64,000 nt of DNA from Rhizobium sp. Q54 (lineage in GTDB: Bacteria; Pseudomonadota; Alphaproteobacteria; Rickettsiales; UBA1997): NCBI GenBank assembly GCA_945871805.1, contig CAMBXE010000002.1, positions 3,632-67,631 on the forward strand. Direction: 5' to 3'. Positions 46,801 through 49,800 of this stretch are shown piece after piece. A program made the position numbers. Each line of letters opens with the position of its first letter. Position 1 is the stretch's first letter.

Positions 46801-49800
46801 TAATGTCGAATCTAAAACTCGAAATCATTTCTCCAGAAGGTATTATTTTTAACGGCAATTGCCACATGGCCGTTATACCTTCAACCCTTGGTGACATTGG
46901 CTTCATGTATGGGCATGAAGCTGTTGTTGCTTTGATTCGCGAAGGTCAAATTACTGTTTTTGACGACAAGCAAAATATCGTAAAACAGATTGATGTTGTC
47001 GGCGGTTACGTCGAGATGAATGGCGCCGAAAAACTTTCGGTCCTGGTTGATGGAAGCGTTAAAAGCTGATCTCGTCTTGTTATAATTTATTGAGAGCGCT
47101 CTAAATTATTTATTCTGTTTACTCCTCGTACTTTTTAACTCATTTGCCCATCTCTTTTTTGTTACTCCGACAAATTACAGGCCTCATCTCGTCACAAGTA
47201 TTTTAGTAAAAATAAAGACAGAAAATGTCGCGCCTCTGCATAGAGCAAGGCACTCGAAGGAACGCCAGAAGAAAGATTCGGGATTTAAGGATTTCGAGCC
47301 GAATCCGTCGAATTTCTACAGGAACAGTAAATTTCTTCTTGAGTCCTGCAAAAGTAAAATTATATTTTACCAAAGTCTTCCCACGGACTACACCACAAAT
47401 CCCAGAACTCTTGAGATCGCCACTCTCAAGAGTTTTAGAAATTCAAGATCACTGTTTTTTAAGATCGGGATGGAGGCTAGTTCAGCCTGGCAAGAGTAAG
47501 TCGCATCTCATAAAGCTCCTTAATTTTGGGCCGTGACCGACATCAATAGTTTCTCTTTTTCAATTCTAAATTGAGTTCGGGAATTTTCGAAAAATTGCGC
47601 ACGGGCTTGAGAGAGAATTCTAGTCCATTTTTTATTCTCACTAAACTGTGGGCGTGAAAATTTTTATCGTCGCGATTTTCGAAATCGGAACGGTAATGCG
47701 CGCCGCGACTTTCGCGACGATTCAGCGCAGAAAAATTTGTCGCTAAAGAATTTAGCAAAAGATTTTCGAGCTCAAAATAAGCAACTAATTCTTCGTTCCA
47801 GATCAGGTTTTTATTTTTGATTTTGTAATTTTTGAAAATTTCGTAAAGTTCGCGAGTCTTTGCCAATCCTAGCTCTAACAGCTTCTCGTCGCGAAAAACC
47901 CCGAGATGTTTTTCGTTTGCCTCCTGAAGAAGTTTTTTCAGTGCGGGTAAATGGATCCCGTCATTCGACGGGGTGACAACACCGCTCTCCACTCTCCCTT
48001 TTGTCACCCCGTCGAATGACGGGGTCCATGTTGAAGCGATGAAAATATTTTTTAGTTTTTCGATTTTTTCCGCGGCGATTTTTTCCGCGATTTTTTCCGC
48101 GATTTTTGTGTTTTGTTGCGAAGATTTTTCCGCCGCTTTTTTTCCAGCGATTTTGCCGAAGACGATTAAATCTAGTAAAGAATTACACCCTAAGCGATTG
48201 GCTCCGTGCACAGAAACGCAGGCTGTTTCACCTACTGCCATCAGGCCATCAATCACATTGCAATCTAGATCAGTTGGAATTCCACCCATCGTGTAATGAG
48301 CAGAAGGCGAGACGGGAATTAAATCTTTTTTAACATCAAGACGGACGAAATTTTTTACCAACTCGATCACGCCAGGAAGTTTATTATACAAAACTTCTTC
48401 GCTCAAATGACGTAGATCGAGATAAATTTTTTCTCCCTTGCGGATCTCAGTAGCCATTGCTTGCGAGACTACATCTCTTGATGCGAGCTCCAACATTTTT
48501 GGCGCGTAATTTTGCATGAAACGTTCGCCGGAAGAATTGACTAAGTATCCCCCCTCGCCTCGCGCAGCCTCGGTTACAAGAAATCCAAGACCTTGAATTC
48601 CAGTCGGATGAAATTGCACAAATTCCATGTCTTGCAGAGGCAGCCCTTCTTTGAAAACTAGGGCAGAACCATCGCCAGTACAGATCAAAGAGGATGTCGT
48701 ATTTTGATAAATTTGGCTGTAGCCGCCGGTCGCAAGAATTATTGTCGATGCAGAAAAAATTACCAACTCACCAGAATTTAAATCAAGAGCAAGACAGCCG
48801 TGACAGTGGCTTTTTTCTTGGCTTGATGACTCAACTAATAAATCAGTAACAAAAAATTCTGAGAAAAATTTCACCCCATTTTTTAGCGCTTGTTCATGCA
48901 GAGTGTGAAGAATTGTGTGTCCCGTTTTATCCTTGGAATAGCAGGCGCGATAGGCAGCTCCGCCTTGACCAAAATTTGTAGTTTGGCCGCCGTAGGCGCG
49001 TTGAGAAATCTTGCCATTTTCTCCGCGCGAAAAAACTACGCCCATTTTTTCTAAATCTAGAATTGCTGTTTGTGCTTCGCGGCAAAGTAATTCAACCGCG
49101 TCGTTATCGGCTAAATAATCTGCGCCTTTTAGCGTGTCGTAGGCGTGCCATTTCCAATCGTCATTTTCCACATTGCTGAGCGTGGCATTGATTCCGCCTT
49201 TGGCCGCAACTGTGTGGCTGCTGGTAGGAACGACTTTACTAATTACCGCAATATTTTTTGCGCCAGCTTCAATCGCTGAAATTGCCGCCATTAAACCAGC
49301 GCCACCTGAGCCAATAATTATAATGTCGAAAGATTGTTTAGAGATTAACAAATTTTTGATTTTTACTTTGTAATTTTGGATGCTCTCCAAATCTAAAATC
49401 TAATTTCTTAAAATTGATAAAAGTTCTTCTTTGTTGCTTAAACGAACAAAAAAATCTTCCCAAAGTTTTTACTGACCTCTTCCGCGAATTAAAAAAATTG
49501 GATGAAAAGTTTGAAGTCATAATGTGCATTGACGGCACGTTTGATGGGTCTTCGCGCATTATTTCTGAATTTCAGAAATCTCATAAAATAAAAGTTCTGC
49601 CAAAAAAAAATCAGCGCGGACTAGGACTTGCCTACAAAAGACTTTTTCTTGAAGTGATCAAAAATTCTGTCGACGAGGATTTGGTAATTACGCTTGATGC
49701 TGATAATACTCATAACCCGAAACAGCTTTTAGAAATGCTCAAGCATTTTAGAAAAAATTCGCTCGATTTTCTCGTCGCCTCACGTTTTTGTGGAAATAGC

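Follow-up and report, generated by a model that had tools for sequence, protein, structure and literature searches.

The in-frame presence of a palindromic repeat within sdhA-1, a gene of the SdhA/FrdA flavoprotein family in Rhizobium sp. Q54 (Rickettsiales, UBA1997), raises the question of how such an element comes to lie in a coding sequence and whether the loop that holds it is targeted or merely tolerant. The window, the whole stretch that we analyzed, is 64,000 nt of contig CAMBXE010000002.1 of assembly GCA_945871805.1 (positions 3,632 to 67,631, forward strand), and the element, a 79-nt inverted doublet of a family that we call PAL-A2, lies at window positions 47951-48029 within the minus-strand gene at 47543-49390 (615 amino acids from a TTG start). 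Here, we find that the doublet is translated as part of SdhA-1, that it is missing from the closest species, and that across the genus the same loop has received hairpins of at least eight families. It is probable, in our judgment, that PAL-A2 is a non-autonomous hairpin related to the CGTC-tagged repetitive extragenic palindromic (REP) elements and the Ssn-associated repeats, and that it sits in one very permissive loop of SdhA-1 in genomes with an abundant supply of such hairpins. In what follows, G000 is the genome of the window and G001 that of the closest species (88% amino acid identity), P numbers denote public homologues, C numbers contigs of G000, and L numbers loci in relatives; several of the DNA comparisons between relatives were done by eye.

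Read on the plus strand, and with coordinates verified against the window sequence, the doublet consists of an R-orientation hairpin unit (47951-47979, ATGGAtCCCGTCATTCGACGGGGTGACAA), a CT-rich linker of 21 nt (47980-48000, caccgctctccactctccctt), and an L-orientation unit (48001-48029, TTGTCACCCCGTCGAATGACGGGGTCCAT). The unit of this family reads T-TGTC-ACCCCGTC-GAAT-GACGGGGT-CCA-T. The L unit equals the genome consensus at 29 of 29 bases and shows the T-TGTC tag, 8-bp stem, GAAT loop, and CCA tail; the R unit, which agrees at 28 of 29, carries the tail TGG, the stem ACCCCGTC/GACGGGGT with one mismatch, the loop ATTC, and the tag GACA. The unit sequence put forward in the first-pass annotation is correct for the second unit and differs by one base from the first (gatccc, not gacccc). 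The linker, GA-rich on the sense strand, is similar to the outer arm that follows R units in other copies, for example the flank gttgagggtgtggagagagg on C14, and a possible element-derived inner arm of uncertain boundary (47939-47950; sense strand TTACCCGCAC, translated LPA) is similar to the TCCAT-TTAGCCGCGAG center arms of other copies and takes the place of VESLAF in an insert-free relative. Each PAL-A2 unit is without stops in two of three reading frames, and the minus-strand open reading frame (ORF) takes the element through as residues 454-480 with neither stop nor frameshift, the L unit being translated WTPSFDGVT, the linker KGRVESG, and the R unit VTPSNDGIH; the in-frame, two-unit inverted element reported in the first-pass annotation was thereby confirmed in coordinates and translation. 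As single-stranded DNA (ssDNA), the 79 nt form a single extended hairpin (dG -35.6 kcal/mol, z = -7.1), and the 18-nt core CCCCGTCGAATGACGGGG, with up to two mismatches, occurs four times in the window against an expectation of 0.00 from 100 shuffles. A second copy, also noted earlier and located as described, is intergenic between nuoD and atpD (45117-45199) and has the usual L-center-R layout (L 45117-45145, R 45171-45199).

The insert is predicted to lie in a disordered part of the protein. The AlphaFold2 model of SdhA-1 (mean predicted local distance difference test [pLDDT] score 80.5) matches SDHA/FrdA structures with a template modeling score of about 0.8, and in it residues 448-480 are coil with pLDDT of 42-58, between helices 428-447 and 481-495. 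Placement of the insert just after the motif NSLLDLIVFGK, as had been proposed, was not borne out: the motif is residues 403-413, and the insert comes 40 residues later, in the model between helices two and three counted from the motif. Compared with relatives, the loop has gained about 20-23 codons, and the frame is kept. The insert is present in 12 of 12 sequences of the species, namely the window ORF and the 11 public members of its protein cluster at 90%, of which P0126 is identical to the window ORF from Met34 on; an assembly artifact was rejected on the same ground, the insert recurring in 11 of 11 public cluster members. Within the species, 5 of 27 insert sites and 18 of the 555 other sites are variable (Fisher p = 0.003), a roughly sixfold higher amino acid polymorphism in the insert than in the rest of the protein.

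Comparison with other species shows that the insertion is young. The same peptide in relatives free of the repeat would have spoken against an insertion; G001 has no insert and reads ...KLKKLFGSSEVESLAFLKKELQENNEKH there, and 10 further species are also insert-free. Of the first 20 codons compared downstream from the NSLLD motif, G000 and G001 agree in the encoded residue at 19 and use different synonymous codons at 9 of those 19. The two sdhA-1 units together depart from the genome consensus at 1 of 58 bases. Near-saturated synonymous divergence combined with units that are 57/58 consensus implies an insertion much younger than the species split, and on these sequence comparisons the insert postdates the separation from the nearest known species. 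A second in-frame copy specific to G000 lies in the acetyl-CoA synthetase gene acs (C17:24040-24121, LSPRQMTGSTSSNEVVDKWTPSFDEVTT), just before the YYSAGDGA motif. It adds 29 codons relative to G001 and G004 in a DNA comparison, and the acs alignments of the other matching congeners break at the insert position.

The host gene had been read as sdhA, an essential gene for a core respiratory enzyme, and this part of the first-pass annotation did not survive. SdhA-1 scores 674.5 bits against the SdhA/FrdA subfamily model TIGR01812 (cut-off 567.3) and 685.7 against the sdhA equivalog model TIGR01816, below its cut-off of 727.35; it is 45-48% identical to ordinary proteobacterial SdhA, and its neighbors are atpC and a glycosyltransferase gene, with no sdhB, sdhC, or sdhD adjoining. 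All 18 congeners first examined have the SdhA-1 gene and a second copy, which in G001 lies within an sdhC-sdhD-sdhA-sdhB operon after leuB. Because SdhA-1 falls below the equivalog cut-off and stands alone, and because relatives have the separate operon, the claim of an essential gene is without support; the window gene is a stand-alone divergent paralogue and not the core respiratory sdhA. It is not decaying. The possibility of a pseudogene with an intact copy elsewhere, which had been raised as an objection to the insertion, was rejected, as the SdhA-1 frame is intact and His59, His261, Arg305, His365, and Arg399, positions in the conserved motifs of the family, are invariant in 109 SdhA-1 orthologues.

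The canonical operon itself presents a puzzle in G000. Neither sdhA2, sdhB, sdhC, sdhD, nor rnhA has a tblastn match in the 63 contigs of this 94.7%-complete genome, which is the sole one without the canonical copy among 27 genomes of at least 90% completeness; the sdhCDAB operon and rnhA were found in all congeners examined. The G000 contig that carries leuB (end of C53) stops some 350 nt beyond the gene that, in G001, stands before sdhC. The missing sdhCDAB is likely an assembly gap. Separately, C14 begins with a large open-ended ORF resembling a restriction-modification enzyme where G001 has rnhA.

The occupation of the SdhA-1 loop is a genus-wide phenomenon and not a peculiarity of one species. 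Seven of 17 species representatives carry an insert there, and five of the six inserts outside G000 are DNA palindromes that belong to other families. The FGK-to-NEK stretch in 120 public homologues extends from a baseline of 51-54 amino acids to as many as 144, and about 100 orthologues revealed at least eight hairpin families in the loop: PAL-A2 (WTPSFDGVT...VTPSNDGVH), PAL-A (WTSQQVRGD...SPRTCCGVH), ILKQVQDD...RHPELVSGS, PLLRGV...PPLTGG, GDPESS...LDPRLRGDD, ILEPQARGS, and two more, in P0010 and P0011. In P0024, P0087, and P0110, internal tandem repeats (e.g., GVTKEES x7, GVGFQDD x6) have enlarged the inserts until they add 80-90 residues, with the frame open. An alignment of 109 orthologues contains 36-40 sequences with at least 10 extra residues at the loop, and other internal sites reach 10 residues in two places only, a 10-column indel after residue 381 (four sequences) and a single 15-residue insert after 426. 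In canonical SdhA of 38 congeneric genomes, the 212 C-terminal residues align as a single 636-nt piece (639 nt in two), and the corresponding region has no multi-codon length change. A literature search, including a targeted one, found no description of one loop occupied by many families beside an untouched paralogue; the closest parallel is a mention of REPs from two Xanthomonas species that occupy about the same position in recB (PMC3733652).

Several stages in the history of such inserts can be read from this one site. PAL-A2-bearing sequences fall in at least five separate clades, and Fitch parsimony on a loop-masked tree, for which cluster sampling was uneven, requires at least 6 changes for PAL-A2 and at least 18 for long inserts. 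A gain is seen in P0008, which has 34 codons more than its insert-free sister P0061 in a common background and bears a 9-nt inverted extension (GCGTCGGCG/CGCCGACGC); a loss is seen in P0022, which retains half a unit (HDGAN) of the element of its sister P0003 after a 75-nt in-frame deletion; and P0027 and P0028 keep degenerate PAL-A2 remnants. All PAL-A2 copies in the loop are R-arm-L doublets in the same frame. From lineage to lineage, the insertion point in the host shifts by 2-3 codons, lying 1-2 codons after a conserved Phe in P0008 and after four codons in P0017 and G000, so that insertion at the same nucleotide in all lineages was rejected by DNA comparison. Extra codons borne by the element, such as the 9-nt extension of P0008, account in part for the R unit lying at an equal distance from the conserved Phe. 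Flanking residues co-vary with the family of the insert (P type LKNKLQ, Q type LKFQLQ), and Q and P families alternate among closely related sequences; this covariation points to homologous recombination as a further way in which whole segments move. In the left flanks of the host, (C/T)GTCA is often found within 9 nt of the insertion point.

The supply of hairpins in these genomes is large. The G000 assembly (1.40 Mb, 63 contigs, 42% GC) contains 36 PAL-A2 units at 23 loci, most of them L-center-R doublets with CT-rich and GA-rich outer arms, and the permuted R-arm-L layout occurs at two loci only, sdhA and C37. The PAL-A2 core is present in 15 of 31 congeneric genomes at 1-96 units each (reversed-pattern control 0-1), and the whole genome of G001 has one unit; the family is dispersed and patchy across the genus. 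Its sister family PAL-A is the most abundant hairpin family of G000, with 95 units at 72 loci, and shares tag, tail, and arms with PAL-A2. Copies in coding sequence, of which the first-pass annotation had suggested a genome-wide catalogue, include PAL-A2 in frame in sdhA-1, in acs, and in a folC-like ORF, and about ten PAL-A units or doublets within open frames of 435-824 amino acids (C17:30980-31116, C12:38979-39187, C6:20156, C11:39823, C15:16578, C18:17385-17719, C30:5540, C31:7678), including a priA-like ORF with an RL doublet (WAPQQVLGDK...SPRTCCGAH) and an mnmG-like ORF. The folC-like case is a degenerate solo PAL-A2 unit with five mismatches (C13:34874-34902, LLPLQMTGLI). The stretch C11:35300-35950 holds two R units 269 nt apart, and behind each comes an array of tandem repeats of 16-19 nt (gtaagaggatgacgtcgag-like); here the GA-rich arms of the PAL-A2 family are themselves tandem repeats.

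To what class does PAL-A2 belong? The CGTC-tagged REPs have the tag CGTC (often TGTC or CCTC), an 8-9-bp stem, a 4-5-nt loop, and a 3-nt tail near CCA; they are mostly alphaproteobacterial, commonly form inverted dimers with spacers of 20-100 bp, encode 20-30 amino acids when the dimers are intragenic, and have no dedicated transposase known (PMC3733652; Di Nocera et al. 2013). Classes CGTC-1 to CGTC-4 take in the Rickettsia palindromic elements (RPEs) RPE-6 (CGTC-1) and RPE-4 (CGTC-4) of R. conorii and dRS3 of Neisseria (PMC3733652). PAL-A2 shares with them the (C/T)GTC tag, 8-bp stem, 4-nt loop, CCA tail, inverted dimers, the length of 20-30 amino acids of its intragenic dimer, the alphaproteobacterial host, and the lack of a RAYT, but its stem ACCCCGTC has an A-T pair at the first position only, where the rule calls for the first and second, its outer CT/GA-rich arms are built of short tandem repeats, and its dimers insert as units in both orientations. 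Like REP/REPIN-RAYT systems and the BIMEs of enterobacteria and pseudomonads, PAL-A2 forms inverted doublets with typical linkers, is non-autonomous, and has occasional intragenic copies; unlike them, its tag is TGTC and not GTAG and there is no RAYT. A RAYT/REPIN mechanism was rejected, since no RAYT/Y1 transposase scored above the cut-off in G000, the best PF01797 match (21.6 bits) lying inside a 1594-amino-acid ORF.

A second line of likeness leads to small nucleases. Small GIY-YIG nucleases of the Ssn type cut the dRS3/NTS hairpins in ssDNA, and copies of these hairpins lie on both sides of the nuclease genes; cleavage of ssDNA was demonstrated for Ssn, transposition was not, and in Neisseria the NTS repeats modulate how transforming DNA is integrated (Chenal et al. 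2025, PMC11893778). Small GIY-YIG genes number five in G000, and one of them (C33:279-557, minus strand) is bracketed by inverted PAL-A units (TTGTCACCCCGCACTTGTTGCGGGGCCCA) and tandem CT-rich/GA-rich arms, and this cassette looks like the autonomous form of the PAL-A family. At locus L118 of the congener G035, an L unit, a 93-amino-acid GIY-YIG ORF, and an R unit follow one another, the units are PAL-A2, the family found in sdhA-1, and the protein is 72% identical to that of C33. Both loci, like NTS-ssnA-NTS, thus place a stand-alone small GIY-YIG gene between inverted CGTC/TGTC-tagged hairpins in genomes with many orphan hairpins; the difference is that the published system concerns control of transformation and not insertion in coding sequence (PMC11893778). 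A separate idea, that the center of the L-center-R doublets is a remnant of the 3′-end of a nuclease gene, was dropped, the motif gtattttg being inconsistent in position and orientation.

The analogy with Rickettsia drawn in the first-pass annotation fared well. PAL-A2 resembles RPEs in being a dispersed palindrome in a reduced Rickettsiales-type genome with lineage-specific proliferation (PMC10969869; PMC1779305 on Ogata et al. 2000, 2002) and in occurring in frame in conserved enzymes at surface positions, here sdhA-1 and acs, with both inserts absent in relatives; the likeness drawn here is one of architecture and behavior. It differs in size, as elements of the RPE-1 type measure 100-150 bp and have a conserved peptide of their own and the PAL-A2 doublet has 79 nt. 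We found no description in the literature of RPEs of many families occupying one loop across a genus. The further claim that the phenomenon is seen here with a different repeat sequence holds at the level of sequence, but the class, CGTC-tagged REPs including RPE-4 and RPE-6, has already been described. PAL-A2 is best regarded as a new member of the CGTC-type REP/Ssn-associated hairpins that is RPE-like in behavior.

How, then, did the loop come to be filled so often? In the account that we favor, which is the simplest, a doublet of two inverted units and a short arm landed in the turn between two helices of SdhA-1, with a hairpin-specific GIY-YIG nuclease perhaps acting in trans to mobilize the elements. 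The insert would be neutral for the enzyme, which would tolerate it, and the repeated occupation of the loop would reflect abundant hairpin elements together with the sole place in SdhA-1 that tolerates sizeable insertions. Insertion points 2-3 codons apart and covariation of flank with family favor tolerance over strict targeting. A number of observations weigh against this account. Mobilization by a nuclease is argued only from the association of gene and repeat and from the Neisseria work (PMC11893778), and no GIY-YIG gene flanked by PAL-A2 itself was found among the G000 contigs. The canonical PAL-A2 unit does not match the published SRM pattern HGTCWYN(0-2)YYVSBRHN(0-5)WNVSBRGN(0-2)RNCYNB, so that strict membership was rejected for it; PAL-A (more than 72 matches in G000) and variants with a CCGGCG stem do match. 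Comparison of flanks with empty sites found no consistent target-site duplication in the sdhA-1 lineages or acs: there is none between P0008 and P0061, a possible 9-nt direct repeat between P0017 and G006, and none in acs. Inverted ends, which together with a target-site duplication mark a MITE, are present. Lastly, several different families start at points no more than a few codons apart and PAL-A2 recurs across clades, a concentration that pure tolerance must absorb.

The first rival account is a targeted process. An Ssn-type nuclease might cut ssDNA at a hairpin already in place or at a host sequence resembling a CGTCA tag, after which repair or recombination would install another module and the site would perpetuate itself. 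The eight or more families in one loop, the parsimony counts for PAL-A2 and for long inserts, the alternation of Q and P families among close relatives, the (C/T)GTCA close to the insertion point, and the five GIY-YIG genes of G000 all speak for such a process. We nevertheless think such targeting unlikely: the host insertion points of P0008 are not those of P0017 and G000, the LKNKLQ/LKFQLQ covariation fits homologous recombination of whole segments better than precise replacement of elements, and the acs insert is without a counterpart in relatives. Moreover, the canonical paralogue, with the same fold and in the same genomes, is never hit, for which selection is the simpler account. Very unlikely is a single PAL-A2 insertion in the ancestor of the genus, inherited vertically, kept at consensus by gene conversion, and lost many times. 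The shared R-arm-L layout and frame of all loop copies, the degenerate remnants in P0027 and P0028, and the deletion that separates P0022 from P0003 speak for it, but P0008 is a clean addition of 34 codons to the background of insert-free P0061, the G000 units are at consensus despite near-saturated synonymous divergence from G001, the G001 genome has only one PAL-A2 unit, and ten or more independent precise losses would be required. Still harder to credit is co-option, in which the loop or a hairpin in the mRNA or DNA would be under selection as an interaction surface, a translational pause, or a signal for recombination or transformation like the Neisseria NTS. The insert is found in every sequence sampled from the species, its hairpin is very stable, and NTS repeats do modulate integration of transforming DNA in Neisseria (PMC11893778); against this, the insert is several-fold more polymorphic than the rest of the protein, it is predicted to be disordered, and sister species have unrelated sequences or nothing in the loop. 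We retain a supply of hairpins filtered by the tolerance of the loop as the probable explanation.

Apart from the palindromic element, the window contains a 12-nt coding tandem repeat at 48061-48107 (minus strand), 32 nt away. Tandem Repeats Finder (period 12) gives CGATTTTTTCCG x3.7 on the plus strand, extending a repeat already recognized in the first-pass annotation, and the AEKI units encode AEKIAEKIAAEKI at residues 431-443. The window has one AEKI unit more than most orthologues of the genus, and copy number is polymorphic within the species, with P0123 and P0131 (2 of 11 protein variants) having one unit fewer. This repeat is a plain slipped-strand replication duplication of the AEKI helix turn. 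Comparable duplications of four residues (SAEK, NNFS region) occur at the same helix in other species. At the other end of the gene, public calls in most strains begin at Met34 (582 amino acids) and lose the Rossmann motif GSGGAG (window 49291-49390); a start at the TTG at 49390, which the JGI call uses and which gives 615 amino acids, is more plausible. At the congener loci L103-L107, an inositol-monophosphatase-family gene overlaps the stop of the SdhA paralogue and a divergent glycosyltransferase gene precedes it, and G000 differs downstream of SdhA-1, where a 473-nt spacer is followed by atpC.

Taken alone, the insert in SdhA-1 is one more selfish palindrome surviving in a gene, as is known from Rickettsia and from CGTC and GTAG REPs. 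One hairpin family occurs both in frame within a protein and on either side of a GIY-YIG gene, which joins the literatures on RPE-like elements, CGTC REPs, and, from 2025, Ssn nucleases. Of the orthologue sequences sampled, between about a third and almost half have been hit at the loop, which ranges from about 52 to 144 residues. With gain, drift, tandem expansion, footprint, and loss all at one site, the choice between tolerance and targeting becomes testable. If targeting were true, hairpins would home to and replace each other at one coding position throughout the genus, amounting to nuclease-driven rewriting of a single protein loop. Either way, two paralogues of the same fold in the same genomes, one of which is never hit, constitute a natural tolerance experiment that separates the supply of insertions from the selection that acts on them.

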